This document shows, in pieces, positions 1 through 16,074 of a DNA stretch of 64,000 nt. The DNA comes from a bacterium (GTDB taxonomy: Bacteria > Zixibacteria > MSB-5A5 > GN15 > FEB-12): contig JBDRNJ010000031.1 of the NCBI GenBank assembly GCA_043811375.1, forward strand, positions 18,031 through 82,030, in the 5' to 3' direction. The number at the start of each line of letters is the position of its first letter. Position 1 is the first letter of the stretch. The translations under genes were made by a program, and so were the position numbers. Below the pieces are notes generated by a model. The model saw nothing but the letters and a program-made list of their open reading frames with translations. It was not told the DNA's origin and searched no databases.

Positions 1-1208
1 GGAATGGTGCGCGTGGCCGGATCGAGGGCACCCCCGGTGGTGAGAACACGCATATCAGAGTTCGGGATGGCCCATCCTCCGGGCAGACCATCGGTCTTCA
101 CAAACGCTCCGACCGGACTTCCCAATTGATAGAAGTCTCTCTCATACACATTCACCTGTAACCACACTGTGGCGGGGTCTACGATGGACATCAGCTTGTC
201 GCCAGAGCGAACTCGCTGTCCGGGACGAGCCTGCCACTCGACGATCTTTCCAGATATGGGTGCCTTAAGAGTTAGAGTGCCGTTTTTGCCACCGCTCGAA
301 AGGGCCTCAAAGCCCGCTTTCATCGCCAAGTAATCGTCTCGAACGAGCTCAAACTCCCGTTCAGAGATAGCCTCGCGATCTTTGAGACGTTGCGCCCTCT
401 CATAATCACGTTTCGCTTGCTCATACGCCAGATGCGAGGAGGCATATCCTGTGCCTTGTAATGGTGGTGTGATCGTAACCACGACGTCACCTCGTTTGAC
501 CAATGATCCCGGTAGCGCCAATTGGCTACCGTTACCCACATGCAAGATTCCATCGACAGGTGAAACTATCTCAACGTAGGAGTCGGGGCTGGGTAGCACT
601 TCACCAATCGCCCACACCGATCGCTTGATCTCGCGGGTTTCAACCTCGCTAGTGGCAAAAGGAATTTTCCACTGTTGCTCCATGAGGAAGCTTATCCCTC
701 CACCAGTCTCACCCTCTTCCTGCGCAGGTATAGCGTCAATGGATGAATACACCTCAAAACCATCTATAACGAACGAGTCGCGCGCGATTGGTCCCTCGTA
801 AGTAAGATTGAGTCTGAGACTCTCGACATCCTTAAGTTCAACGGTTGGCGTGAAAATGCCTTCTCGAAGCAGATCAGTTTCCACTATTTCGAGCACGGAT
901 CGTGTTTCATTCATGAATGTTAGGGTGACTTTGCCTTCTCTGACAGGCTGAAAACCTTCAAGAATAGTAAGGTGAATAATAAACTTGCTCGGCTGGTTTG
1001 CCACCAGGAGAGGGTATTCCATGAACAATCCCATTTGGTCCGTAAATTCTGTCACCGAAACCGAGGGAGCCTCACCGTTATTCCCCTGGACGGCGGTTTC
1101 TGAGTTGTTCTGATCCGTCCTCCCTTCAGCAGGCTCACTACTTCCACTGGCAAAAGCCTGAGTTGCAAAGGCTAAAAGGAACAGAGCGATATATGCTGTA
1201 ATCTTCAT
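1..1208 (-). CDS. Efflux RND transporter periplasmic adaptor (CzcB/CusB-like), partial, runs off window start
   Basis: ATG at 1208 just downstream of the TolC gene. Manual translation gives MKITAYIALFLLAF (signal) ... LFMEYPLLVAN ... ISFLMEQQWKIPFAT ... LTLKAPISGKIV, typical of heavy-metal RND adaptors. Confidence 0.8.
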   Translation of the reverse strand, partial: MKITAYIALFLLAFATQAFASGSSEPAEGRTDQNNSETAVQGNNGEAPSVSVTEFTDQMGLFMEYPLLVANQPSKFIIHLTILEGFQPVREGKVTLTFMNETRSVLEIVETDLLREGIFTPTVELKDVESLRLNLTYEGPIARDSFVIDGFEVYSSIDAIPAQEEGETGGGISFLMEQQWKIPFATSEVETREIKRSVWAIGEVLPSPDSYVEIVSPVDGILHVGNGSQLALPGSLVKRGDVVVTITPPLQGTGYASSHLAYEQAKRDYERAQRLKDREAISEREFELVRDDYLAMKAGFEALSSGGKNGTLTLKAPISGKIVEWQARPGQRVRSGDKLMSIVDPATVWLQVNVYERDFYQLGSPVGAFVKTDGLPGGWAIPNSDMRVLTTGGALDPATRTI

Positions 1209-1217
1209 CGTGTAATC

Positions 1218-2450
1218 CTATTCTTCAAAGTTCACGAGAGTCTCACCCGTGATTGTTTCCAATTGAAAAAGGTTCAGGTAGAATTGAGTCAACTGCCCGT
1301 AGTAGTGCTCAAGGCCGGCCACCTCTATTTGAATTGCGTTTAGGAGCTCATTAAGGGTCAACCAGCCTTCTTCATAGGAATACAAGAGATTGTTGAACTC
1401 CTCCGAATCCTCAAGGAAGTGTGGTGAAGCTAGTGCAAGAGATCCCTGCGAACCGGCAATCGATTCTGTAAGCGCCTGCACTTGACCAATGGCCTGAGTG
1501 CGGTTAAGTTGCATCTCGGTCCGAGCAATATCGCTCTCGATCCGGTACTTACGTGCCGTCGAACCGTTGCGATTGAAGAGCGGTAGGCTTAGTGAAACAC
1601 CCGCCACATATCCGTCCACGTCCGGATCAATCTTCTTAAGTCCCGCATACACGTTGAGAGCCGGTATGAACTTCCCCTTTTCAGCAGATGCGCGCTTGCG
1701 AAACGACTCTACCAAGAGCGACCTGGACATATAATCTGGCTGAGATTCTACCACCGCAGTGTAGTGCTCGACCGGCTTCAAGTCGATCAATCCGAAACCG
1801 ACCGGCGTGGCCAGTGTGACCACGTCATCGGGACCCAATCCCACATTGGCTCGCCAGAATGCTGAGAGCTCTTTTCTCTCCTGCAGAGCTGATTGGTGAC
1901 TCGCGTTGAGAGATATTATCGCCATCTGGATGAGGTGTTCTTCTGCACCTGATAGATGCCCCTCGGAGTGTCTTGAGGTTGCCACATGTGAGGCATCCGA
2001 AAGGGCTTCTTTAAACCGCTCTAATCGCGAAAGATACTCATCAAGGAGTTGTAAGGCTACGTACCCGGACTTCAACGTAGCCAAATGTGTTCGCCTGCTC
2101 TGCTCTTTCGTCAATTCAGCCGATTTGACGCGATCTTTCCAACTTGACCGCTTCTTTGAGTAGGCCCACGGTACCTCGACCTGTTTCCCAATTGTGATTT
2201 GGTATTCTTTGGCCTGGTCGACATCCTCACGATCATATGCGATTACTGGATTTGACCATTGCAGGTCTTCGTCTCGTTCGGCAAGAACCCTTTCGAACTC
2301 CTGCCCAATGATCTGGGCACGCGGGCTGTATTCCTGCGCGTGATTGTCCAGATCAGAAAATCTGATTGTCTTGGTCTCCGCCTGGGCGACTGAGATGAGA
2401 ACACTCAGTATCAGCCCAGCGCGAAGAATCCATGATGCTCTGTCAAGCAT
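1218..2450 (-). CDS. TolC-family outer membrane efflux protein (CzcC-like)
   Basis: 410 aa with signal peptide, WSNP motif, GVSLSLPLFNRN and YEEGWLTLNELL. Confidence 0.85.
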   Translation of the reverse strand: MLDRASWILRAGLILSVLISVAQAETKTIRFSDLDNHAQEYSPRAQIIGQEFERVLAERDEDLQWSNPVIAYDREDVDQAKEYQITIGKQVEVPWAYSKKRSSWKDRVKSAELTKEQSRRTHLATLKSGYVALQLLDEYLSRLERFKEALSDASHVATSRHSEGHLSGAEEHLIQMAIISLNASHQSALQERKELSAFWRANVGLGPDDVVTLATPVGFGLIDLKPVEHYTAVVESQPDYMSRSLLVESFRKRASAEKGKFIPALNVYAGLKKIDPDVDGYVAGVSLSLPLFNRNGSTARKYRIESDIARTEMQLNRTQAIGQVQALTESIAGSQGSLALASPHFLEDSEEFNNLLYSYEEGWLTLNELLNAIQIEVAGLEHYYGQLTQFYLNLFQLETITGETLVNFEE

Positions 2451-2505
2451 ACACGTTATCCTTGTTTAAGAATATTGATTGTTTTGTTTAGAAAAAGACT
2501 TAGGA

Positions 2506-2928
2506 TCAGGTCAGCTTAGGCGGACCACGACAGACGAATGTGTCTATGGAAACCGATTCTGGAAGCGAGTCTCCGTCGCACACGCTTGCTGAAGACCTTT
2601 GGCCGACATCGGAACCGTCGACTACTTCGCCACATACACCCAATACATTGACTGGTAATGAGGTGTTTCTATCATACGAACGGGTTCTATGCCAGTAGTC
2701 GATACTTTGGTCGAATGTATGGTGATGATGCCCGTCCTCGTGATGATCCTCAATAGCGTCCGGATCTACATCAACCGGGTGGAGACTTATCTCTATTGGG
2801 AATCCTTGGTCGTCGTGCGAATGGTGGAAATGGACATACGGATAGACTTGGCTGAAGTAAACCAATAAGAGCACCAAAGCCAGCTTTGGCCATCCGTAGC
2901 GCTTGTTTACGTTTGGCGAACTATCCAT
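2506..2928 (-). CDS. Small His-rich membrane/exported protein ending in RGPP (possible metal-responsive leader)
   Basis: Hydrophobic segment, HFHHSH and DHHEDGHHHH, C-terminal RGPPKLT. ATG 2928 preferred over TTG 2937 because of promoter geometry. Confidence 0.6.
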   Translation of the reverse strand: MDSSPNVNKRYGWPKLALVLLLVYFSQVYPYVHFHHSHDDQGFPIEISLHPVDVDPDAIEDHHEDGHHHHTFDQSIDYWHRTRSYDRNTSLPVNVLGVCGEVVDGSDVGQRSSASVCDGDSLPESVSIDTFVCRGPPKLT

Positions 2929-2936
2929 AGAAGGCA

Positions 2937-2964
2937 AATGTAGTCAAGTTTCTCAAATAGTCAA
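2937..2964 (-). promoter_or_regulatory. Sigma70-like promoter
   Basis: TTGACT-16 bp-TACATT, ending 8 nt before ATG 2928. Confidence 0.5.
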
Positions 2965-3000
2965 ACAGAATCCTACTCGTTATAAGGTTTGTAGCTCCCG

Positions 3001-3037
3001 TATGTGTCATATGTTCCAACATATTAGTTCGCACATA
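3001..3037. promoter_or_regulatory. Palindromic operator candidate between divergent metal genes
   Basis: ATATGTT-CC-AACATAT (3009-3024) nested in TATGTG...CACATA. Confidence 0.4.
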
Positions 3038-3084
3038 GTGAATTTGACCTTTTGAGTACCTTGACCATCTGGTATTATTGGTTC

Positions 3085-4152
3085 ATGGCTACTTCAGGTA
3101 CTAAGACACGTGGTTCAGGTGCGTATGTAGTCTCGCTCGCTCTCGTCTCGGCAGCCTTGTTTGGGGCTGCCACCCCGGCAAGCAAGGCGGTGCTTGGAAA
3201 CCTCACGGCATTCCAGTTAGCGGGATTACTTTACCTCGGTGCGGCCTTGGGGGTCCTAACTGTCATGATTCGAAAGCGGTCTTGGCGCCCGCCGTGGGCG
3301 ATGACAGCCAAGAACCAACGAAATCTAATCGGAGCCGTCTTTTTCGGCGGCCTCCTCGGACCGGTGCTTCTACTTTTTGGCTTGCAAATGGCTTCAGCGA
3401 CCTCCGTATCTATGTGGCTGAACCTCGAAATAGTTGCGACGGCGGTTCTGGGGAGGATGTTCTTTCACGATCACTTAGGGCGTTACGGCTGGTTGGGCGT
3501 AGCAGGCATTGTGGCCACCGGAGCTTTGCTCAGTGTCGGAGAAGGTTTGGCTGGTCTTTGGGCTGGCCTTTTGGTTACGGCAGCTTGTACCTGCTGGGGG
3601 TTGGACAACCATTTTACTTCCCTCATCGACGGCATCACGCCCTCTCAAAGCACCTTCTGGAAAGGGCTTGTGGCAGGCTCAGTCAACCTGATATTAGGCC
3701 TCATTCTGCACTCTTACGATGCTTCTGTGACGATCACGGTGGGTGCGCTTGTTATCGGAGTGTTCTCGTACGGTGCCAGCATTACACTGTACATCACCGC
3801 CGCTCAGGGAATGGGAGCCACTCGCGCACAGATGTTCTTCGCCAGTGCTCCATTCTTCGGAGTTGCTCTGTCGGCGATTGCTTTGGGGGAATCAATAACT
3901 GCTCTTCAATTGACCTCTGGCGTCTTGTTGGCCATATCACTGGCCGCTCTCTTTCGAGACAGGCACCATCATGGGCATGTACATGACCCGATGGAGCATG
4001 AACACGCGCACCGTCATGATGACGAGCATCACGATCACGCTCATCCGGAACTCGCGTCGGGGACGCGTAACTCTCACTGGCACGAGCATAATGTGGTCGA
4101 GCACGCCCACCCCCATTGGCCCGACCTTCACCACCGCCATCGGCACAGCTAA
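3085..4152 (+). CDS. DMT/EamA family transporter with His-rich C-terminal tail
   Basis: About 10 TM segments in two EamA repeats. Tail HHHGHVH...HAHPHWPDLHHRHRH. Confidence 0.85.
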   Translation: MATSGTKTRGSGAYVVSLALVSAALFGAATPASKAVLGNLTAFQLAGLLYLGAALGVLTVMIRKRSWRPPWAMTAKNQRNLIGAVFFGGLLGPVLLLFGLQMASATSVSMWLNLEIVATAVLGRMFFHDHLGRYGWLGVAGIVATGALLSVGEGLAGLWAGLLVTAACTCWGLDNHFTSLIDGITPSQSTFWKGLVAGSVNLILGLILHSYDASVTITVGALVIGVFSYGASITLYITAAQGMGATRAQMFFASAPFFGVALSAIALGESITALQLTSGVLLAISLAALFRDRHHHGHVHDPMEHEHAHRHDDEHHDHAHPELASGTRNSHWHEHNVVEHAHPHWPDLHHRHRHS

Positions 4153-4321: not shown

Positions 4322-6130
4322 TTAGGCTCTCTCCAACTGCAGGAAATGCACGTAACCTGAAGCACCGCCAACGAGGATCGTGACGCCATCAGGGCAGACC
4401 GCACAGCAGTACAGACTTTCATCAATATCGAAATTCATCAGAATCTGCCCCGACTCCAGATCCCAAACCTTCAGGGTCTGATCAGAAGACCCGGAGATGA
4501 CACGGCCGCCGTCGGGCGTCACCGCCAGGGCATTGACCCAACCCGTGTGCCCCTCCAGGGTGCGGATGACTTGCCCCGACTCCAGATCCCAAACCTTCAG
4601 GGTATGGTCCCAAGACCCGGAGATGACACGGCCGCCGTCGGGCGTCACCGCCAGGGCATTGACCCCACCCGTGTGCCCCCTTAGACTCATTAACTCACTG
4701 CCCCCTGCCTGCGTGATGCTGGGGTGCAATAGGCGTAACCAAGCCTGTTTGGCCTCTGACGCCTGATCACGAAGGTTAACGATGTCCGCTTCCCTGCTTG
4801 AAAAAAGACGCGCATAGAGCTGTTCGGCCAGTTGATCCTTGTCCGTCATGAGAATGTGAGCTGCCAGCCGCAGGGCCGATTGTATAAGGCGCAAAACAGA
4901 ATCATCCGGGAAGAAGTCGTAGTCGGATATCAGGCTCTGTAAATCCGTGCTGTTCAGCTTTGCTTGCAGCCATTTGAAATTTTTCAATAAGCGCCGCAGG
5001 GTCTCTGCACGATTAGCGCCTTGGAGATGGTAGCCGACCCATTGACAGGCGTATTGGTTGGGAAGGTTGTAATGATCTTTCCAGGAATCCGCCAGTTTGC
5101 CGTGCACAGAGTGCCCATCCGCCATCTGTGAGATAAGATAGGTTCGAATAACATCGTGCGGGCGAAGAGTTTTCTTATTCAGGTCAAGATTCTGCAGCAA
5201 AGAAAGGTTGGCCAGCCGCAACGCTAAGTCTTCTGTGTCAAGCTCGTCCAATCCCCATAATTGACTCACTACATCAAGCGGTACGTTTTCATCCTCAGGA
5301 AAGATACCCAGGTGCAGGTAGCGTTCACGTCCCTTGGCAGGCAACAGCTCCAAACTGGCACCGACAGTCAGATCGATTGCATCATTACGATGTTCAGGAT
5401 TGTGGCGGTTGAAAGCATCAATCCCCCGCTTGTCGAGCGCCTTGTTGAGGTACGCCACCGCCTCGTCCGCGCTGACGCCTCGTACAATGCGTTCTTTCAG
5501 AGCACTACCAGCCAGGGAAAGTAAGAGCGGCCACTCTCCCATACGAGCTGACAACTCACGGTACGGCTGCAAATCATGGGGACGGCTTTTAAGCTGACCT
5601 ACCAACATCTCCGTGGCCTCGTCTGAAGTCATCTCATCAACCGAGACCAGTGGCATTCCGGTAACCAGATCGCTCCGCCGAGTCGTGACCATCACAGTGC
5701 AACCGCCTACCGCTCGCCTGAGACACTCCAACTCCCTGCGGTTCCAGATATCGTCCAGCACAACCAGGCAATCCTTACCAGCCACCTTACCAGCCACGGT
5801 ATTTATGGCATCCTCTTCGTCCACAAAGGGGGGACGCTCACCGGTCAGCGCCGCGTACAACTTCGCGAGTGTACCCACTACATCCGGCTTCTCACCAAGC
5901 GTGACCTAGAGAATACCATCATTGTAAGCAGTGATAACTTCTTCATTATGACAAAGTGCTGCCGCCAGGGTAGTCTTGCCGAATCCACCGGCACCATACA
6001 GAGCAGTTGTGATGACAACCGGATTCTCCCGATTTTTGTCCAATACTAAGCTAAGAAGCTGGTCGTACTCATTTGGACGCTCCACAAAACCCTCCGGTGG
6101 CTCCGGAGCCATATAGGGTACAAGTCCCAC
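4322..6130 (-). pseudogene. NB-ARC (APAF-1-like STAND) NTPase with WD40 repeats, interrupted by an in-frame TAG and lacking an N-terminal effector
   Basis: Walker A GAGGFGKT in the 5906-6130 part, Walker B LVVLDDIW, PHD (MHD-like) and WD40s in the 4322-5878 part. Both parts share one frame and the junction reads DGIL*VTLGEKP. Confidence 0.8.
4446..4679. repeat. Near-identical 126-bp tandem WD40-coding repeats
   Basis: 4446-4553 matches 4572-4679 except for a few codons (SDQ/WDH, W/G). Confidence 0.9.
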
Positions 6131-6356: not shown

Positions 6357-9300
6357 ATGCCTAAACACCCCGTCGAGACTTACCTCAGTGAGCTTCATGA
6401 AATTCGTGCCACCGGCGGTGGCTCGGCTGAAATATCTTACTATGGTGCTTTGGAAGCACTGCTAAACGAGGTGGGAAGGAAGCTTAAGCCCAAAGTTCGT
6501 TGCGTTCATAATCTGGTAAATACCGGTGCAGGGTTCCCCGACTTTGGGTTATATACGGCAAATCAATTCCAGAAAGCCAAGAATGCCGAACCCTTACCGG
6601 GTCAGCTGCCGGAACGCGGCGTGATTGAGGTCAAACCCACCGACGATGATTCCTGGCTCACGGCAAAGGGGACACAGGTCACCAAATACTGGGGGCGTTA
6701 CGGACAGGTACTGGTCACCAACTACCGCGATTTCGTCTTTATCGGTCGAGATGAAAGAGACAAACCAGTGAAGCTGGAGACATTTCGCCTGGCCGACACG
6801 GAGAACGCCTTCTGGGCAGCTACAACTCACCCGCGAAAGACGGCACAGGATAAGGGTGACAGGCTGATTGAGTTCTTGTGTCGCATCATGCAGCACGCTG
6901 CTGCGATTACTGATCCGGAGGACTTAGCCTGGTTCCTGGCGTCGTACGCGCGTGAAGCTAAGGCACGGATTGAAGCCGTGAGCGATCTGCCTGGTCTTGC
7001 TGCTTTGCGCGGAGGGCTGGAAGAGTCACTTGGCTTGAGATTCGAGGGCGAGGAAGGTGAACACTTCTTTCGTGCAACATTGATTCAAACCCTTTTCTAC
7101 GGCGTCTTTTCATCCTGGGTCCTGTGGGCACGCGATAACGGCACCAAAGAAACTGACCGGTTCAACTGGCATGAGGCGGCATGGAATCTCCATGTTCCTA
7201 TGATTGCCGGCTTATTTCAGCAGATTGCCACACCGAATAAACTTAAGCCGCTGGGGTTGGATGAGATCCTCGATTGGACCGGCATGGCTCTTAACCGTAT
7301 AGTACGAGACAAGTTCTTTGAGAAGTTTGAGGAGGAGCAGGCAGTCCAGTATTTCTACGAGCCGTTCTTGAAAGCCTACGATCCTGATCTGAGAAAAAAA
7401 CTCGGCGTCTGGTACACGCCACAGGAGATTGTCAAGTACCAGGTTGCACGTGTGGATACTGTGCTCCGAGAGGAATTAGACATCGAAGACGGCCTGGCTG
7501 ACCCCAGCGTCTATGTGCTCGATCCCTGCTGCGGTACGGGGGCGTATTTGGTGGAGGTGCTGCGCAGCATTCACCGGACACTGAAGGAAAAAGGTGCTGA
7601 TGCTTTGACCGCCCAGCAGCTCAAAAAGGCGGCAATGGAACGTGTCTTCGGATTTGAGATTCTCCCCGCGCCTTTTGTTGTGTCACACCTTCAACTGGGT
7701 CTTATGCTCAGGACTCTCGGAGCGCCCCTTTCTGAGAATGGTAAAGAGCGCGTCGGTGTCTATCTCACAAACGCCCTGACAGGATGGGAGCCGCCCAAAA
7801 GCCCCAAGGACCAATTGGCCTTCCCGGAACTGCAGGAGGAACTCGAAGAGTCTGGAAAAGTCAAACGTGAAGTCCCGATCTTGGTAGTCCTCGGTAACCC
7901 ACCCTACAACGCCTTTGCCGGAACAAGCCCTGCAGAGGAACGGGGCTTGGTCGAGTCTTTCAAGGATGGACTCACTAAACCGGTCAAGGATGGCGGCTGG
8001 GGGATAAAGAAGTTCAACCTCGATGACCTCTATGTCCGCTTCTTCCGCATCGCCGAGCGGCGGATTGTCAAGAGTGGCATGGGAGTAGTCAGCTATATCT
8101 CGAACTTCTCTTACCTTGGCGACCCATCATTCGTGGTCATGCGCCAACGATTCCTTGATGAATTTGACAAGCTCTGGTTCGATTCCATGAACGGTGATAG
8201 TCGGGAGACTGGCAAGAAGACTCCTGACGGGAAACCCGATCCCAGCGTCTTCTCCACAGAGCAGAGCCGCGTAGGCATTCGAGTAGGCACGGCGATCTGC
8301 ACAATGGTTCGCAGGCGCAAGCGTTCAAGAATGCCCACGGTTCGCTTCCGCCACTTTTGGGGAGCGACAAAGCGAGCAGATGTCCTGAACAGCTTGAAGG
8401 TTAAGAAGTTCAATAAGGACTACGACATCTCCGGTCCTAATACAGGAAACAGGTTTTCGTTTCGACCCCAGGTTGTCGACGCTCATTATCTGTCATGGCC
8501 AAAGCTTACTGCGCTGTGTGGCGAAGCACCCAGTAACGGCTTGATGGAGAAACGAGGCGGTAGCCTCATTGATGTGGAGAGACAGGCTCTTGAAAGGCGT
8601 GTGACGGCTTACTTCGATGCGAACCTTGATTGGGAGGGGTACAGGTCACTCGGCTACGGGCTTGAGAAACCGAAGGCAGGTATTGATGATCCCGAGAAAC
8701 TGAGGAAGAAAGCAATAGCAGCAGAACCATATAAGCCACAACATTTGGTCCGGTATTCGGTACGCCCCTTCGAAATACAGTGGGCTTATTACTGCGCCGT
8801 CCCAGGCGTTTGGAATCGTGCGCGACCGAACTACAAGGAGCAATGCTGGGAGGGAAACACATTCATCATAACGCGTCCTGCCGGAGTTGCGAGTGTTGAA
8901 GGAACTCCGCTGTTTTTCACAAGCACCATCGGTGACAACGACTCCCTGCGGGGACATGCCTACTACTTCCCGGTGCAATTTCGCCCGGCCACCAGGAAAC
9001 GAAGGGCAGACAGCGCCTCTGGCAGCTTGGCTCTCGAAATCAAGCCGCAACGGGCCGTGGCCGCCAACCTCTCGAACAACGCACGCGCATACCTGAAATC
9101 CTTCGGCATCTCCAACCCGGACATGAACGCAGAGACAGCGAGCCTCATCTGGATGCACGCGCTGGCCATCGGATACTCGCCTGCCTACCTTTCCGAAAAT
9201 GCCGATGGCATCCGCCAGGACTGGCCGAGAATCCCGCTTCCTGACTCGAAGAAAGCACTCCTGGCCTCTGCCAAGCTCGGCAACCGGGTCGCAGCCTTGC

Positions 9301-9851
9301 TCGATACAGAGAGGGGCTTGTCCGGCGTCACATCTGGTAGGCTTCGCGCAGAACTAAAGACAATGGGGATCGTCTCGCGTGTTGGTGGAGGTAGCTTGAC
9401 TGCGGAGGAAGGCGGCTTCGGCTTGACCGCCGGTTGGGGACACGCTGGAAAAGCTGGCGTCACGATGCCCGGCAGGGGGAAGATCGAGGAGCGGGCCTAT
9501 ACGGGTGAGGAGCTTGAAGCGTTTAACGCTGGGGCAAAGGGACTCGGTCTTACATTGAAGCAAGTGCTTGAGCATCTTGGGAAGAACACGCTCGATGTTT
9601 ATCTGAACGACATGGCGTACTGGAAGAACATTCCAGTCAACGTGTGGGACTACCATATAGGTGGCTACCAGGTCATCAAGAAGTGGCTCAGCTACCGTGA
9701 GAAAAGTCTTCTTGGACGCTCCCTGAAAATGGAAGAAGTCGAATATGTCACCGACACGACACGTCGCATCGCAGCGATCATCTTGTTGCAGCCAACCCTT
9801 GACACCAACTATGAAGCAGTGAAATCGGATACATACGTGTGGAGCGACTGA
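6357..9851 (+). CDS. Fused restriction-modification enzyme: PD-(D/E)xK-like nuclease, N6-adenine MTase and type ISP-like specificity domain (type IIG/IIL-like)
   Basis: PDF...IEVK at the N-terminus, GVWYTP, LDPCCGTG (motif I), GNPPY (motif IV), C-terminal WDYHIGGYQVIKKWLSYR. No helicase motifs. Confidence 0.85.
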   Translation: MPKHPVETYLSELHEIRATGGGSAEISYYGALEALLNEVGRKLKPKVRCVHNLVNTGAGFPDFGLYTANQFQKAKNAEPLPGQLPERGVIEVKPTDDDSWLTAKGTQVTKYWGRYGQVLVTNYRDFVFIGRDERDKPVKLETFRLADTENAFWAATTHPRKTAQDKGDRLIEFLCRIMQHAAAITDPEDLAWFLASYAREAKARIEAVSDLPGLAALRGGLEESLGLRFEGEEGEHFFRATLIQTLFYGVFSSWVLWARDNGTKETDRFNWHEAAWNLHVPMIAGLFQQIATPNKLKPLGLDEILDWTGMALNRIVRDKFFEKFEEEQAVQYFYEPFLKAYDPDLRKKLGVWYTPQEIVKYQVARVDTVLREELDIEDGLADPSVYVLDPCCGTGAYLVEVLRSIHRTLKEKGADALTAQQLKKAAMERVFGFEILPAPFVVSHLQLGLMLRTLGAPLSENGKERVGVYLTNALTGWEPPKSPKDQLAFPELQEELEESGKVKREVPILVVLGNPPYNAFAGTSPAEERGLVESFKDGLTKPVKDGGWGIKKFNLDDLYVRFFRIAERRIVKSGMGVVSYISNFSYLGDPSFVVMRQRFLDEFDKLWFDSMNGDSRETGKKTPDGKPDPSVFSTEQSRVGIRVGTAICTMVRRRKRSRMPTVRFRHFWGATKRADVLNSLKVKKFNKDYDISGPNTGNRFSFRPQVVDAHYLSWPKLTALCGEAPSNGLMEKRGGSLIDVERQALERRVTAYFDANLDWEGYRSLGYGLEKPKAGIDDPEKLRKKAIAAEPYKPQHLVRYSVRPFEIQWAYYCAVPGVWNRARPNYKEQCWEGNTFIITRPAGVASVEGTPLFFTSTIGDNDSLRGHAYYFPVQFRPATRKRRADSASGSLALEIKPQRAVAANLSNNARAYLKSFGISNPDMNAETASLIWMHALAIGYSPAYLSENADGIRQDWPRIPLPDSKKALLASAKLGNRVAALLDTERGLSGVTSGRLRAELKTMGIVSRVGGGSLTAEEGGFGLTAGWGHAGKAGVTMPGRGKIEERAYTGEELEAFNAGAKGLGLTLKQVLEHLGKNTLDVYLNDMAYWKNIPVNVWDYHIGGYQVIKKWLSYREKSLLGRSLKMEEVEYVTDTTRRIAAIILLQPTLDTNYEAVKSDTYVWSD

Positions 9852-10077: not shown

Positions 10078-10857
10078 ATGGGACATATCCGACTCGACCG
10101 ACTACCGAAGACCAGGCGTTGGAAAGAGGTTATTGAGTTACTTCACCAGGGCAGGTCCATTGACGAGTTGGCGCGGGCAACATTCTACGCCGCTCAAACG
10201 GGTTTGTCTCGAATACCCATTGATGCCGGCTTCACTCAGACCCTTACCGTCATATTTGGTTTCATTGACGCTCTCCAATCCAAAACTCCAGTTACCAGTT
10301 TGCGTCAAAAAGGCTTTGCCGTGCCGACGGATGCTTCACTATTTGACTATGTCGGTAGCTTCAAGGCGCGAGCCGAGGACGCAGCAGCGGCTGTCCACGC
10401 GCGATCCGATATCGCTGAAATCGCACGGGATAGTTTCTCGCAAGTTCTGCTGAAATACGCCGGTTCATCGTTGCAGACTCTCTTCGGCGTCGATTCAACT
10501 GATGCGAAACAAGCTTTGCGATCCAACCTCAAGGGGAAGCCACTCGGCTCGACTATGCACGAGTTCTTCGCCACCTTCACTCAAAGGTATCTCAATTACT
10601 ACTTGGGTCGCGAATTGCCTAATCACGTTGGGACCGGCAAGGCGTTTTCAAATGTGGATGGGCATTCGGAGTTCAACAAGGCGTTTGACCTCCATGTCAG
10701 GCAGACAGTGCGGATAGCCGACGAGTTCACTCCGGGTTGGTTTGGCAAGGCACGATATGAGGAGAGGCTCTCGCATAAGGACGTGTCTCGCTTTGCCCAT
10801 ACAGCCTTCAAGAAGATTCGTAGCGAATTTCGGCGAGGTGGAGAGGCTAATGGATGA
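10078..10857 (+). CDS. Hypothetical helical protein starting Met-Gly, probable partner/substrate of the QueC-like enzyme (QatB-analogous)
   Basis: Strong RBS (AGGAGG), starts MGHIRL, and its stop overlaps the next ATG by 8 bp. Confidence 0.7.
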   Translation: MGHIRLDRLPKTRRWKEVIELLHQGRSIDELARATFYAAQTGLSRIPIDAGFTQTLTVIFGFIDALQSKTPVTSLRQKGFAVPTDASLFDYVGSFKARAEDAAAAVHARSDIAEIARDSFSQVLLKYAGSSLQTLFGVDSTDAKQALRSNLKGKPLGSTMHEFFATFTQRYLNYYLGRELPNHVGTGKAFSNVDGHSEFNKAFDLHVRQTVRIADEFTPGWFGKARYEERLSHKDVSRFAHTAFKKIRSEFRRGGEANG

Positions 10858-12682
10858 ACCGGTGGACATCTGGTGCGGTCCGGAGTTACTGCCGAGAAGT
10901 TTCAGTCGAAGGCGCACAGTCCTCCTCAACACAGTCCCCGATTTCCACAACGTCAACCTCCGGATTAAGAATATCACAAAGAAGCTCGCCAAGAATCTGT
11001 CTCCGGTAGTCCTCGATCTCCTCGAAATCGCCAGCTACGTTTATGCGGCGGATCAATCGGTCCGTCGCGGGGGTAGGACGCTACGGGGAGACGGCAAAGA
11101 CTGGCGCAGGGAGTTTGTGTATCACATTCCGGTTCGGCGTCTTGACCTGTGGCAAAGCGAAGAAACATCTGAAGCTCTTGTCAATCTACTGACCTTCCTT
11201 TCAGATGATTTCTATGAGTTCAAGTTTCGAGAGTTGACCAGGGAAGTTGATCCTCAGACATACATTGATTTTGACGAAGGCAGACCGTGGTTTGATGCCA
11301 ACAAGGTCATGCTGTTTTCAGGTGGACTCGACTCCCTGGCCGGTCTATGTGAGAGCGTGAAGGACGACAATCAGAGAATCGTTCTTGTGAGTCATCGCCC
11401 GGCACCGCAAACAGACCATTTGCAGAGAAAACTACTGGCTGATTTCACAGGGTTGACCGAAAGCCAGAAGCGTCTGTTGCATGTGCCGGTCTGGATAAAC
11501 AAAGCTGAGAAACTCACCAAGGACACGCACCAGCGAACCAGATCATTCCTGTATGCTTCATTGGCAGCCTCGCTGGCTCATATGCACAATCTGTCAAAGG
11601 TGTACTTCTACGAGAACGGGATTACCAGTTCGAACCTGGCTATTGCGCCATCGGCTCTTGGAGCTCGCACCAGCAGAACCACGCATCCGCAAGTTCTCAA
11701 GGGCTTTAGCAGACTGCTGTCAGTAATCTTCAATCAAGATTTCTCTGTCGACAATCCGTTCTTCTGGAAGACGAAGGCGGATATCGTCAAGATCATAAGG
11801 GATTGCGGAGCGAAGGATTTGATTCGTCACACGAGCAGTTGTAGTCATGTTAGATCAGGCAACCCATTGGGCAATCACTGCGGTGTTTGTTCCCAGTGCA
11901 TAGGCAGACGGTTGGCGATTCTGCACAACTCCGCGGAAGCCGATGATCCGGAAGAAATGTATCGGGTCAGGATGCCTCTGGACCCAATAACCAAGGACAT
12001 TGAGCGAGCCATGTTGGAGCTAATCATCAAAGCGGCGCGGGACTTCGAGAGTGCCGATGTGGTCAGTTTCTTCGGCCGTTACGGGCAGGCGATGGCGATT
12101 GTGACTGCGCTGGACATGAAATCGGACCCGGCCGCAAACAGGCTCTTGGAGCTGCACAAGCGCCACGGTCAGCAAGTGTGCCAGGTACTCCAGGACATCG
12201 TTGAAACCCACGGAGGACTGGTGGCGCGTGGAGGTGTCCCGGCGAACTCCATGCTAAGCATGATAGCTGAGCAACCAACCAAGACGCCCGCTGTGCCAAA
12301 AGGCTGTATGCCCATTTCCTTGCCGGAGGATACTGTCTGGGAAGACATCACCGTTGAAATTGTCGGCAACGATGCGGCCAAGATATTCATCGGCGATCAG
12401 TATCATGCAGTAACGGCATTTGACATGGGATTCAAGGATCACAAGAAGAACTTACCCAACCGCATTTGGGATCTTCTTTTTGACTTTGCTGAAGCTGGCG
12501 GGACCCTGGCATGGAGTTCGGAAGAAAGAACGGGGCACTGGTACCATAAGGACTTCCAAAGGCTCAGAAACACCCTCAAAGCGTTCTTCGGTCTGACTGA
12601 GGACCCTCTGGCTCCATATGACAAAAAAGTAGGCTACCAAACGCGCTTCAGTATTCTTTACGACCGCACTGCAAAAACCTGA
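10850..12682 (+). CDS. QueC-family (7-cyano-7-deazaguanine synthase-like, QatC-type) protein with extra C-terminal domain
   Basis: DLLEIASYVYAAD, PP-loop SGGLDS, QRTRSFL, ENG, RTTHP and Zn site SC...HCGVCSQC. ATG 10850 is coupled to the upstream stop. Confidence 0.85.
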   Translation: MDEPVDIWCGPELLPRSFSRRRTVLLNTVPDFHNVNLRIKNITKKLAKNLSPVVLDLLEIASYVYAADQSVRRGGRTLRGDGKDWRREFVYHIPVRRLDLWQSEETSEALVNLLTFLSDDFYEFKFRELTREVDPQTYIDFDEGRPWFDANKVMLFSGGLDSLAGLCESVKDDNQRIVLVSHRPAPQTDHLQRKLLADFTGLTESQKRLLHVPVWINKAEKLTKDTHQRTRSFLYASLAASLAHMHNLSKVYFYENGITSSNLAIAPSALGARTSRTTHPQVLKGFSRLLSVIFNQDFSVDNPFFWKTKADIVKIIRDCGAKDLIRHTSSCSHVRSGNPLGNHCGVCSQCIGRRLAILHNSAEADDPEEMYRVRMPLDPITKDIERAMLELIIKAARDFESADVVSFFGRYGQAMAIVTALDMKSDPAANRLLELHKRHGQQVCQVLQDIVETHGGLVARGGVPANSMLSMIAEQPTKTPAVPKGCMPISLPEDTVWEDITVEIVGNDAAKIFIGDQYHAVTAFDMGFKDHKKNLPNRIWDLLFDFAEAGGTLAWSSEERTGHWYHKDFQRLRNTLKAFFGLTEDPLAPYDKKVGYQTRFSILYDRTAKT

Positions 12683-12865
12683 TCGCCGAAATATCGACGG
12701 ATCACCGCAATCCACTCTGAAAAATAGTTAGCTCTCTAATCTCCCGTTGCACTGTGTAATACGGGAGACGTCTGTCCGATTCAGGTGTTTTTTCTCGCCT
12801 CAGCGAAATTTCGCCAAAGAAATACGAAGGACAAAATGATTGGCGAAAGCAAAACGGCATGACCC

Positions 12866-13135
12866 TTGTGGTCGAGGTCCGGAAGGTGCCTTCAACGCCA
12901 ATCTGCCTTCCGGACCTTTTTTGCTTTGGAGCTGGATTTGGCACTTGTTTCCAAAGATTCGTGGCAAGAAGGGGAAGACCCGCCCCGGCCGGAGAAGAAC
13001 CGTGTCGAGTTCGTGGCTTTTCAAGGTCGTCAGGTAACGCAGGTTGAATACGCGGAAATCTGCCGGAATCTGGCGGAGTACTTTGGCATCCTCCGAGCGT
13101 GGCTGGAAAAGGAACGTAGCGGTGAAGAAGAGTAG
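12866..13135 (+). CDS. Small hypothetical protein (true start uncertain, probably shorter)
   Basis: Amphipathic C-terminal EYAEICRNLAEYFGILRAWLEKE directly upstream of the recombinase genes. Confidence 0.4.
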   Translation: MWSRSGRCLQRQSAFRTFFALELDLALVSKDSWQEGEDPPRPEKNRVEFVAFQGRQVTQVEYAEICRNLAEYFGILRAWLEKERSGEEE

Positions 13136-13187: not shown

Positions 13188-14297
13188 GTGAAAACAGTGC
13201 AAGTGAATAGCAAAAATGAGAAGATCAAGAGGAAGTACTTCAGGTGGTTGAGGGAGGCAAACGGCCTGTCGGAGCTAACTGTCTGTGCTGTAGAGAAAGC
13301 GATCTGGCTGTACGAGGACTTCACCAATCACGGTGACTTCGCGGGATTCAACCAGAGCAAAGCTGTCAGGCTGAAGAAATGGCTGCTGAGCAGAACCTAC
13401 AGAGGAAAGCCAGTCTCGATCACCACAGTATATCACTACCTGCGTCATCTTAAACGGTTTTTTGTCTGGTTGTCTGGCCAACCTGGCTACAAGTCGAGGA
13501 TAAGTTTAGACAGCGTCTCGTACTTGTCGCTGGAGAAAAAGAAAGTACGAGAGGCAACCGCACCTAAGCGAGTGAAGTATCCTTCCTTGGAGTATGTCCG
13601 GAATCTTGCTGATTCTATCGATGTGAGAAACGAGATTGATCAGAGAGATCGAGCGCTGATTGCATTCCTGCTTCTGAGCGGAATGAGAGACAAGGCCGTC
13701 AGTACTCTCCCCATCGGTTGTTTTGATACCCAGACGCTGGAGATTCAGCAGGACCCGGTAGCAGGCGTTGACACCAAGTTCGGGAAATCCTTCATAAGTG
13801 TTTTGTTCCGCTTTGATGACAAGCTTGTTGAGTATGTGATCAACTGGGTCAAGTACTTGACAGAGACGAAGCTGTTCGCCTCCACTGATCCACTGTTTCC
13901 GCGGAGCAGAGTGGAACAAGTAGAGGGTGGTTTGACTTTCATCTCGCGGCAGGTTGAGGGAGTGTACTGGAAAGGGGCTGGTAGCATCAGACAGATTCTG
14001 AAGGTTCGCTCGGCAAAAGCAGGCCTGAATTATTATCACCCTCACTCGTATCGCCATACGGCTGTGAGTCTGGCTATGAGGTACTGCCGTAACGCTGAGG
14101 AAATCAAGGCAGTAAGTCAGAACTTCGGTCATGACTACATCGGTACTACGATGGTCACCTACGGGACACTGGACGACTTCAGAGTAGAGGAGATCATTAG
14201 AGGAATGGATTTTTCAGCCGGTTGCTGCAAGGTGAACCAGAATCAGGTGATCGAGGATGTGCTGAGACAGCTTGAAAAACTGAAAAAGAACTCTTGA
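13188..14297 (+). CDS. Tyrosine recombinase/integrase
   Basis: Catalytic set SGMR, K (DTKFG), HSYRH, NFGH, TYG. Confidence 0.9.
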   Translation: MKTVQVNSKNEKIKRKYFRWLREANGLSELTVCAVEKAIWLYEDFTNHGDFAGFNQSKAVRLKKWLLSRTYRGKPVSITTVYHYLRHLKRFFVWLSGQPGYKSRISLDSVSYLSLEKKKVREATAPKRVKYPSLEYVRNLADSIDVRNEIDQRDRALIAFLLLSGMRDKAVSTLPIGCFDTQTLEIQQDPVAGVDTKFGKSFISVLFRFDDKLVEYVINWVKYLTETKLFASTDPLFPRSRVEQVEGGLTFISRQVEGVYWKGAGSIRQILKVRSAKAGLNYYHPHSYRHTAVSLAMRYCRNAEEIKAVSQNFGHDYIGTTMVTYGTLDDFRVEEIIRGMDFSAGCCKVNQNQVIEDVLRQLEKLKKNS

Positions 14298-14332: not shown

Positions 14333-14527
14333 ATGGCTAAGAAGGATTTGATAACAAAGCTCGAAGAGTTTCGGTTGGAGAACAGGATCACTCAGACCGA
14401 ACTGGCGGATATGATGGGAGTGGCATTCGTAACCGTCAATCGGTGGCTGAACGGTCATCAGTACCCGAACCGGATTCAGGAGTACCACATCGAGAAGCTC
14501 CTATCTTCTAAGGGACGCAAGCGATGA
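14333..14527 (+). CDS. XRE-family HTH regulator
   Basis: ITQTELADMMGVAFVTVNRWLNG. ATGA overlap with the next gene. Confidence 0.85.
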   Translation: MAKKDLITKLEEFRLENRITQTELADMMGVAFVTVNRWLNGHQYPNRIQEYHIEKLLSSKGRKR

Positions 14528-16074
14528 AGTGCGTGATCTATGCCAGGGTCTCGTCGAAAGAGCAGGAGCGCGAGGGCTTTTCAATTCCGTCACAACTGAA
14601 ACTCGTGCGAAAATACGCCCGTGAGAACAACCTGGAAGTGGTGCAGGAGTACATCGACGTGGAAACAGCCAAGGCCACGGGGCGAACTGGATTCGGCGAA
14701 ATGTTGGCATACATCAAGGCACCTATGCACGAGTGTCGCGTAATTCTGGTGGAGAAGACAGACCGCCTCTACCGCAATATCAGGGACTGGGTCACTTTGG
14801 ACGAGTATAATGTTGAGGTTCACTTCGTCAAAGAGAACTTCATTCTTTCAAAGGATTCAAAGTCGTCAGAGAAATTTCTTCACGGCATCAAGGTCCTGAT
14901 GGCCAAGAACTACATCGACAACCTCTCGGAGGAAGTGAAGAAGGGAATGCGTGAGAAAGCCGAGCAGGGTGAATGGCCCAACAAAGCACCCTTGGGCTAT
15001 CTGAACAACAAGGAAACCCACCTGCTTGAGGTTGATCCGGACCGTGCTCCAATAATCGCACAGCTTTTTGAATTGTACTCTACTGGACAGCATTCCATCA
15101 CAACTTTACACCAAAGAGCAAAAGAGCTGGGCCTTAAGTACAGAAACTCGAACCGGTATTGCAGCCGAAGCAACATCGAGAGAGTTCTGAAGAACCCGAT
15201 ATATGCCGGTCGATTCGTATGGAAAGGCACCACCTTCCGGGGAATCCACGCACCGATAATATCTGAGACGCTGTTCGAAGAGGTCCGGGCGCGGTTCCGT
15301 AGGAGCGGCAAATCCAAGGCCAACACTCGGAAGTTTGCTTTCAAGGGACTGCTCACTTGTGGCTACTGTGGCTGTGCTATCACTGCCGAACTCAAGAAAG
15401 GGAAGTACGTCTACTATCGGTGCACTAACGGCAAGGGTAAGTGCAAGCAGCCGTACGTTCGCGAAGAGAAGCTTGCTGATACTCTTGCGGAAGTCGTTAT
15501 TCGAGTGCGTATTAGCTCGTCCCAAGCAGGAGAGATAAGAGAGGCTCTGAGGGCCAGCTTCGAAACAGAAAAGGGATATCGGACGAAAGAAGTCGCCAGG
15601 CTGAAGCGTGAACAGGCGCGACTCCAAGGCCACCTTGATCAGACATACCTGGATAAGATTGAGGGACGAATTGACACCGAGTTTTGGAGGAAGACGCACG
15701 ATAGATGGATCAGTGAGCAGAACTTGGTATCAAGCAGGATGGAGGAATTGACGCGCGCCAACAAGAACTACTACGAACAGGGCGTCGATTTCTTAGAACT
15801 CGCCCAAGCAGCCCCCTCGTTATACCTTAGCCAGACAATCGACGAAAAAGCCAAGCTGTTGCGTACGCTACTTTCGAACTGCACGATGAAGGGGGCAACC
15901 CTTTGTCCCACATACAACAAACCCTTCAACTTGGTCGCTGAAGGGGGCGCAGGTGACAAAAAGCTGGGAGACTGGGATTCGAACCCAGATTCTGCGGTCC
16001 AGAGCCGCATGCCCTGCCATTGGACTATCTCCCAGTACCTTAAGACAAATCGGCGACTGCCGCCAAATTCTTAG
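14524..16074 (+). CDS. Large serine recombinase
   Basis: YARVSS catalytic motif, EKTDRLYRN, recombinase domain, Zn ribbon (CGYCG...YYRC...C) and coiled coil. The C-terminus is read antisense through the tRNA. Confidence 0.92.
   Translation: MKCVIYARVSSKEQEREGFSIPSQLKLVRKYARENNLEVVQEYIDVETAKATGRTGFGEMLAYIKAPMHECRVILVEKTDRLYRNIRDWVTLDEYNVEVHFVKENFILSKDSKSSEKFLHGIKVLMAKNYIDNLSEEVKKGMREKAEQGEWPNKAPLGYLNNKETHLLEVDPDRAPIIAQLFELYSTGQHSITTLHQRAKELGLKYRNSNRYCSRSNIERVLKNPIYAGRFVWKGTTFRGIHAPIISETLFEEVRARFRRSGKSKANTRKFAFKGLLTCGYCGCAITAELKKGKYVYYRCTNGKGKCKQPYVREEKLADTLAEVVIRVRISSSQAGEIREALRASFETEKGYRTKEVARLKREQARLQGHLDQTYLDKIEGRIDTEFWRKTHDRWISEQNLVSSRMEELTRANKNYYEQGVDFLELAQAAPSLYLSQTIDEKAKLLRTLLSNCTMKGATLCPTYNKPFNLVAEGGAGDKKLGDWDSNPDSAVQSRMPCHWTISQYLKTNRRLPPNS
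15964..16034 (-). tRNA. tRNA-Gln(CTG), CCA not encoded
   Basis: TGGGAGA TA GTCC AATGGCA GGGC A TGCGG CTCTGGA CCGCA GAAT CTGGG TTCGAAT CCCAG TCTCCCA G folds as a cloverleaf. Confidence 0.95.

Follow-up and report, generated by a model that had tools for sequence, protein, structure and literature searches.

A Stand-Alone QatBC-Like Gene Pair with Exchangeable Tails and Matching DNA Boxes

In a 64,000-nucleotide stretch of DNA from a bacterium of the Zixibacteria (GenBank assembly GCA_043811375.1, contig JBDRNJ010000031.1, positions 18,031 to 82,030; hereafter the window, whose own numbering is used throughout), two coupled genes at 10078-12682 encode a partner protein and a QueC-family enzyme with an additional C-terminal tail. 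This pair is a real, widespread and apparently undescribed variant of the QatB-QatC (QatBC) core of the qatABCD defence system. The main new evidence is that the tail, which is exchanged between lineages, comes in types that are matched by their own DNA boxes. A first-pass annotation had interpreted the pair as a minimal anti-phage system, an interpretation that is partly supported overall. We give an even chance to reading the pair as a QatBC-type sensor with an exchangeable output, which would serve as a switch for the recombinase operon of a mobile element and not only as a phage killer.

Results

Tail types and their DNA boxes

The boxes of the window lie directly beyond the enzyme gene. 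Box 1, the near-palindrome CGAAATATCG (12687-12696), is located 5 nt past the enzyme stop codon, and box 2, the palindrome CGAAATTTCG followed by a conserved CCA (12804-12813), is located 117 bp past box 1. Both are predicted binding sites of the tail and neither is assigned to a strand. The paired pattern (12687 and 12804) has a single occurrence in the host genome.

Boxes were counted by tail type in the 230 nt around the enzyme stop, with patterns that were picked by eye and with related loci that are not independent of one another. For the window-type tail, a loose form of the pattern is present in 7/7 genome loci and 1/1 viral loci (background 2.3%), and a strict form in 5/7 and 0/1 (background 0.02%); the loose pattern also occurs in 6 of the 79 loci with other tail types. 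The "long" tail type is accompanied by two copies of GCYAC-N7-GTRG in 6/7 genome and 3/3 viral loci (background 0.2%), the N7 spacer having been corrected after a zero count, and the alphaproteobacterial tail type by two copies of GTCACR in 13/22 genome and 8/8 viral loci (background 0.5%). For the Trans_reg_C tail type, TTTCAGCR is found twice in 1/2 genome and 3/8 viral loci, with a box that was chosen after the viral loci had been seen. Each of these last three boxes is absent from every other tail type, and none of the eight loci of the nuclease tail type has a box. A repeat test that used no motif gave a weak result and did not pick out the window.

Two further tests favor control sites over gene ends as the nature of the boxes: the position of the box where the excision genes face the pair, and a search with DNA alone that links the palindromes to the tail domain. 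In 13 loci with excision genes facing the pair, the box is absent after the enzyme stop; in 9 of the 12 readable loci, the excisionase-like genes are preceded by at least two copies within 580 nt. The DNA-only search for the box pattern returned 18 genome and 90 viral stretches. A gene with the window-type tail domain lies less than 4 kb away in 18/40 stretches with full palindromes versus 0/68 without, a criterion that was set after the data had been seen and applied to viral loci that include duplicates. Sixteen of these 18 linked stretches carry no QueC gene. Full palindromes are missing from 65 of the 90 viral stretches, and many of the viral matches are chance or duplicate hits to a short pattern. 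Four genomes have the box with no tail gene within 4 kb; in two of them such a gene, interrupted by an internal stop, is located at a distance of about 12-13 kb, and the other two gave no tail-gene match.

Among the scanned loci without a QueC gene, most have the box in front of sigma-like, PD-(D/E)xK, AAA_24, primase or serine recombinase genes, and two have LexA-like genes nearby. There are two exceptions. One is L106:3191-3988, a fusion of the tail domain with a cytidylyltransferase-like domain in a surface-polysaccharide gene cluster, with boxes and then a second cytidylyltransferase gene after it (these are sugar nucleotidyltransferase genes). The other is L080:4908-5928, where the tail domain occurs on its own in two tandem copies that flank the two boxes, and these boxes precede non-mobile genes encoding secreted-repeat and peptidase-like proteins. 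A promoter/terminator scan found no sigma-70 site at the window boxes; box 2 is predicted to be beside the promoter of the downstream operon.

The tail and its variants

The tail proper (12281-12682, plus strand; approximately residues 490-610 of the enzyme) confirms the annotation's report of about 130 extra residues. A structure prediction made for the tail alone resembles the OmpR/PhoB winged helix. In other lineages the tail is swapped for other types of DNA-binding domain, of which the alphaproteobacterial group matches TcpP and BaeR by sequence, or for a DpnII/MboI-like nuclease. Nuclease-tailed QatC-like enzymes with intact catalytic residues are encoded at L014, L031, L043, L049, L053, L060, L061 and L076; seven of these eight loci fall in one clade, and their neighbors include defence-type genes (HEPN-RES, type I and III restriction-modification (RM) and an AbiEii-type ATPase). 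If any members of the family form a self-contained two-gene defence system, these are the best candidates.

Neither the family loci (1.03 Mb) nor the host genome (3.56 Mb) yielded an extra match to the tail domain of the window. Within 4 kb of boxes at L108, L109, L117, L118, L120, L121, L123, L165, L174, L182 and L183, we observed a family of 200-400 amino acid (aa) proteins in which a Cys-rich N-terminal part precedes this domain; the same boxes and leader are close by. These proteins reside in prophage-like early regions and probably constitute an undescribed family of element regulators.

The partner protein

The partner is encoded by open reading frame (ORF) 1 (10078-10857, plus strand), which specifies 259 aa starting with Met-Gly-His. 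The ATG of the enzyme gene at 10850 overlaps the ORF1 stop by 8 nt (ATGGATGA), and the enzyme gene ends at 12682 after 610 codons, so the coupling described by the annotation holds at these coordinates. The partner has 82 close matches, a profile search yielded 1,605 cluster representatives at E <= 0.001, and the partner is present in 79 genome loci of many phyla and in 23 viral loci. The enzyme gene adjoins it in 75 of 80 genome loci (window counted), and two of the five loci lacking an enzyme match are on contigs that end less than 450 bp from the partner. In 72 loci the enzyme starts between 32 nt before and 10 nt after the partner stop. Split or truncated partner or enzyme genes are seen in L021, L029, L033, L039, L050, L051, L059 and L074, reflecting either decay or sequencing error.

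The N-terminus of the partner is a short flexible tail of about 10 residues, MGHxRLxxLP. The annotation's interpretation depended on a conserved Gly2, and this residue is kept in 74/74 loci whose profile match reaches position 1, a criterion that favors intact N-terminal ends. It is also found in 212 of 228 database proteins as called, the remaining 16 of which look truncated or extended, and in 22 of 23 viral partners, the last being cut off. Gly2 is the likely acceptor of a modification.

The predicted structure of the partner is all-helical and has the QatB fold in structural comparisons other than a wide search with one chain per cluster, in which QatB was not among the 50 matches listed. 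Pfam, PADLOC and NCBIfam provided no family match (a QatB model matched 2 of 150 members, with a best E of 0.081), a sequence search of the PDB gave no match, and profile comparison with six QatB proteins from complete qatABCD operons returned a probability of 9.9%. The annotation's statement that the partner does not obviously resemble QatB or a CD-NTase stands with regard to sequence and to CD-NTases, but the model has a QatB fold.

The enzyme core

The core of the enzyme (10850-12280, plus strand; residues 1-477, with an N-terminal extension) carries the motifs SGGLDS, QRTRSFL (RxR), ENG, RTTHP (within SRTTHP) and PxxxxTK. The PP-loop and zinc site noted by the annotation are intact: the zinc cysteines C331, C344, C347 and C350 are invariant in 60/60 aligned relatives, and the QatC-type motifs, as listed in PMC13082051, are conserved across the same 60 proteins. 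The enzyme matches Pfam QueC with an E of 5.8e-9 and PADLOC QatC with an E of 1.6e-49; against NCBIfam QatC it scores 187.6 bits, short of the curated cut-off of 280. Solved QatC chains in the PDB align to residues 52-366 (E 1.1e-23). Judged by these motifs, the chemistry of the enzyme is QatC-type.

At positions 275 and 277, which correspond to QatC T278 and T280 according to alignment with QatC and PMC13279940, T or S is present in 60/60 and 59/60 enzymes, respectively ([T/S]R[T/S] in 59/60). The Tyr/Asp pair with which Cap9 and QueC recognize the deazaguanine CDG occurs in 0/60. QatC was inactive in vitro with CDG or other deazaguanines (PMC13376578), and the QatC reaction could not be reconstituted in vitro (PMC13279940, PMC13376578). 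The host genome (95% complete) gave no match to QueD/PTPS or canonical QueC; TGT is present. Modification of Gly2 by the enzyme is a reasonable expectation from homology, but deazaguanine is unlikely to be the joined molecule because of the T/S pocket, the inactivity of QatC with CDG and the lack of QueD and QueC matches in the host.

A two-state leader RNA

Downstream of box 2 is a leader (12826-12922, plus strand) that can form either of two structures. A terminator-like hairpin with a U run (12876-12916) has a predicted energy of -35.1 kcal/mol, and an alternative helix of -30.8 kcal/mol pairs 12826-12845 with the hairpin loop and 3′ arm (12896-12910). Across six relatives, 65/66 cells preserve the alternative helix, with three changes on both sides; 6/500 shuffles scored as high, and slid controls were at most 61% paired. 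An attenuator function is likely, and is graded no higher because six related sequences are few. Rfam holds no family for the leader, and the promoter/terminator scan did not call the hairpin because its loop exceeds the limit of the scan.

Mobile-element context

The pair lies immediately 5′ of recombination genes. A small ORF of uncertain true start (12866-13135, plus strand), related to an ORF in the same place among relatives, is followed by a tyrosine recombinase gene (13188-14297, plus strand) that is a likely target of the boxes and leader. A large serine recombinase (14524-16074, plus strand), the likely integrase of the element, has a frame that extends into a tRNA-Gln(CTG) gene (15963-16034, minus strand), the likely integration site. 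Among non-nuclease-tail loci, 41/50 have a recombination or replication gene within 5 kb downstream, versus 0/8 nuclease-tail loci. The usual order in the clade of the window is partner, enzyme, boxes, leader, an excisionase-like helix-turn-helix (HTH)/Zn-ribbon gene, tyrosine recombinase, serine recombinase and often a tRNA, with the elements of relatives ending at tRNA-Gln, -Asn or -Asp. One additional relative shows this order through the serine recombinase, and in a second the enzyme gene is truncated.

The excisionase-like gene, which follows the small ORF in relatives, was not found anywhere in the host genome, and the window copy of the element may therefore be in decay. A search for a copy of the tRNA end, which would mark the left border of the element, found none. 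Of 40 relatives of the host that were sampled, six have the partner, a patchy distribution that fits the expectation for a mobile unit. On another contig (G000:C32:1440-1465), a stretch of 26 nt nearly repeats the end of the serine recombinase gene, which suggests a second related element in the host genome.

The absence of KAP NTPase, TatD and CD-NTase genes noted by the annotation is borne out by a scan of 10 window proteins from the ORFs between 1218 and 16074. Nor was any of these three families matched among 99 neighbors and neighbor-family representatives, which are a selection and not every gene of every locus. The one KAP-family NTPase of the host (G000:C90:54-2657, 867 aa) is among housekeeping genes on another contig, where qatB and qatC gave no match.

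Upstream of the pair, a single-chain type IIG/ISP-like RM protein (6357-9851, plus strand) has an N6 methylase and an ISP specificity domain and gave no match to a helicase domain. Relatives of this gene are not found in the other 79 family loci. Farther upstream (4322-6130, minus strand) is an NB-ARC/APAF1-helical/WD40 (STAND-type) gene with two frames split near 5880-5906 and an N-terminal part that is apparently missing; it is probably a pseudogene or an assembly error. The label of defence island given by the annotation thus has one RM gene and a broken NB-ARC/WD40 gene in its favor, but the pair itself directly fronts the two recombinases. Genes for heavy-metal-type RND efflux are located to the left of the island (1-4152), and similar-looking genes directly follow the serine recombinase in L219; these may be cargo or a second insertion site.

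Discussion

If the pair is a switch for the recombinase operon, its operation can be sketched by analogy with QatBC structures. The partner and enzyme would form a 1:1 complex, Met1 of the partner would be removed, Gly2 would lie in the active site, and the enzyme would adenylate a first substrate. It would then join a molecule, probably not deazaguanine, to Gly2, and this modification would set whether the tail acts on the two DNA boxes, which likely control the recombinase operon of the element. In nuclease-tailed lineages, the same sensor would have DNA cutting as its output. These parts are not equally secure. From comparison between loci, the tail probably binds the boxes, and activation is somewhat favored over repression. 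We lean only slightly toward a coupling between box binding and Gly2 modification, and phage infection as the trigger falls a little short of an even bet. A broader and more tentative suggestion is that QatBC, instead of being the weapon itself, senses infection in general and does so by tagging its own partner. Its output would be a nuclease in some lineages and, in most others, a transcription factor with its own promoter box, the latter launching excision and replication of the integrated element when phage arrives, as a satellite or escaping element would do.

Other explanations must be weighed against such a switch. The main alternative, a stand-alone anti-phage system, is rather unlikely in our estimate. 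Here the QatBC-like core would itself restrict phage, and the tail would be a fused element regulator that binds the boxes independently of the enzyme, for example so as to tie defence expression to the state of the element. Tail-less QatB and QatC protect against lambda (PMC13279940), and the defence-type genes beside nuclease-tailed versions, the patchy distribution among relatives and the upstream RM gene all point the same way. However, the core is joined to several DNA-binding domains, each with its own box at recombination genes, and this repeated fusion to regulators is hard to explain if core and tail do not communicate. The box and tail evidence also speaks for a switch that is set by a host metabolite or stress and not by phage, in which the first substrate would report cell state and the pair would time excision or replication of the element. 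We consider this improbable. It is consistent with the LexA-like repressors that adjoin non-QueC tail proteins in two scanned loci and with the proposal that the QatC substrate could be a host metabolite (PMC13376578). Nevertheless, all relatives of the core that have been tested function in phage defence, and some members carry a nuclease with intact catalytic residues.

The annotation had pointed to deazaguanine chemistry, in which the enzyme would attach 7-deazaguanine to Gly2, and to possible cooperation with the neighboring RM enzyme. The QueC-family fold, the invariant Gly2 and the precedent of Cap9 (PMC13279940) are in keeping with this proposal, to which we assign very little probability. 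The Tyr/Asp pair is replaced in the family, QatC was inactive with CDG in vitro (PMC13376578), the host genome gave no match to QueD or canonical QueC, and the RM gene is without relatives in the 79 other loci. Both the chemistry and the cooperation were rejected on these grounds.

The structural papers do not settle which molecule QatC attaches to QatB or by what means phage is stopped (PMC13279940, PMC13376578). If the family couples QatC chemistry to a tail with a known box, then QatC-type activity could be followed in living cells with a simple reporter gene, and the trigger and substrate of QatC could therefore be screened; nuclease-tailed members would provide a second direct read-out. 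It is the match between tail type and box that makes the question of the trigger testable in this manner. A defence enzyme family would also be tied to the control of mobile-element excision across many phyla. Moreover, if the infection-sensor reading is true, horizontal gene transfer would be under a one-component regulator whose input domain is a PP-loop enzyme that conjugates proteins. A literature search that covered few subscription papers and no supplements brought up nothing relevant on QatBC standing alone, on its fusion to a winged helix or nuclease, or on a connection with excision; the supplements of PMC13082051 could include the family.

Comparison with known systems

The closest known system is the QatB-QatC core of qatABCD, for which structures are available (PDB 9y01/9y02, 9zee and 9vlk; PMC13279940, PMC13376578 and PMC13639016). 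The pair shares with it a coupled B-then-C gene order, a helical partner of predicted QatB fold directly upstream with an N-terminal Gly2, and an enzyme with the QatC N-terminal extension, PP-loop, RxR, ExG, T-R-T/HP pocket, PxxxxTK and four-Cys zinc site. In contrast, no qatA (upstream) or qatD (downstream) was found beside the pair among the 10 window proteins and the 99 selected neighbors and neighbor-family representatives, and the partner has no detectable sequence match to QatB. It starts with MGHxRL and has a flexible tail of about 10 residues, compared to MGTS and 30-90 in QatB. The enzyme has a zinc spacer of 12 residues versus 19 in QatC and is about 150 aa longer, ending in a swappable DNA-binding or nuclease tail, whereas canonical QatC did not bind DNA (PMC13376578). 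The pair also differs in adjoining element recombination genes and a matching DNA box.

In type IV CBASS, Cap9 attaches 7-deazaguanine to an N-terminal glycine (PMC13279940), and the pair would likewise use a QueC-family enzyme to act on the N-terminal glycine of its partner. Unlike Cap9-CdnD, however, no CD-NTase, Cap10 or effector gene was found among the neighbors scanned, the partner has an all-helical QatB fold in its model, and the enzyme is QatC-type, not of the minimal Cap9 type, and lacks the CDG-recognition Tyr/Asp pair.

The tail has parallels among regulators. FseA of ICEMlSymR7A, an activator with DUF2285/DUF6499 domains under quorum-sensing control, is an element-encoded DNA-binding protein that acts at an inverted repeat before an excisionase gene (PMC10359603); binding by the tail of the pair would be comparable, but its domain is OmpR-like and fused to a PP-loop ligase. 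The predicted fold of the tail is that of OmpR/PhoB regulators such as BaeR, CadC and TcpP, although its input domain is a QatC-type enzyme in place of a receiver or membrane sensor. The window box is a palindrome, in contrast to the direct repeats that are usual for the OmpR family. The pair stands outside qatABCD by gene content, but its modeled fold and its active site suggest that it works like the QatBC core.
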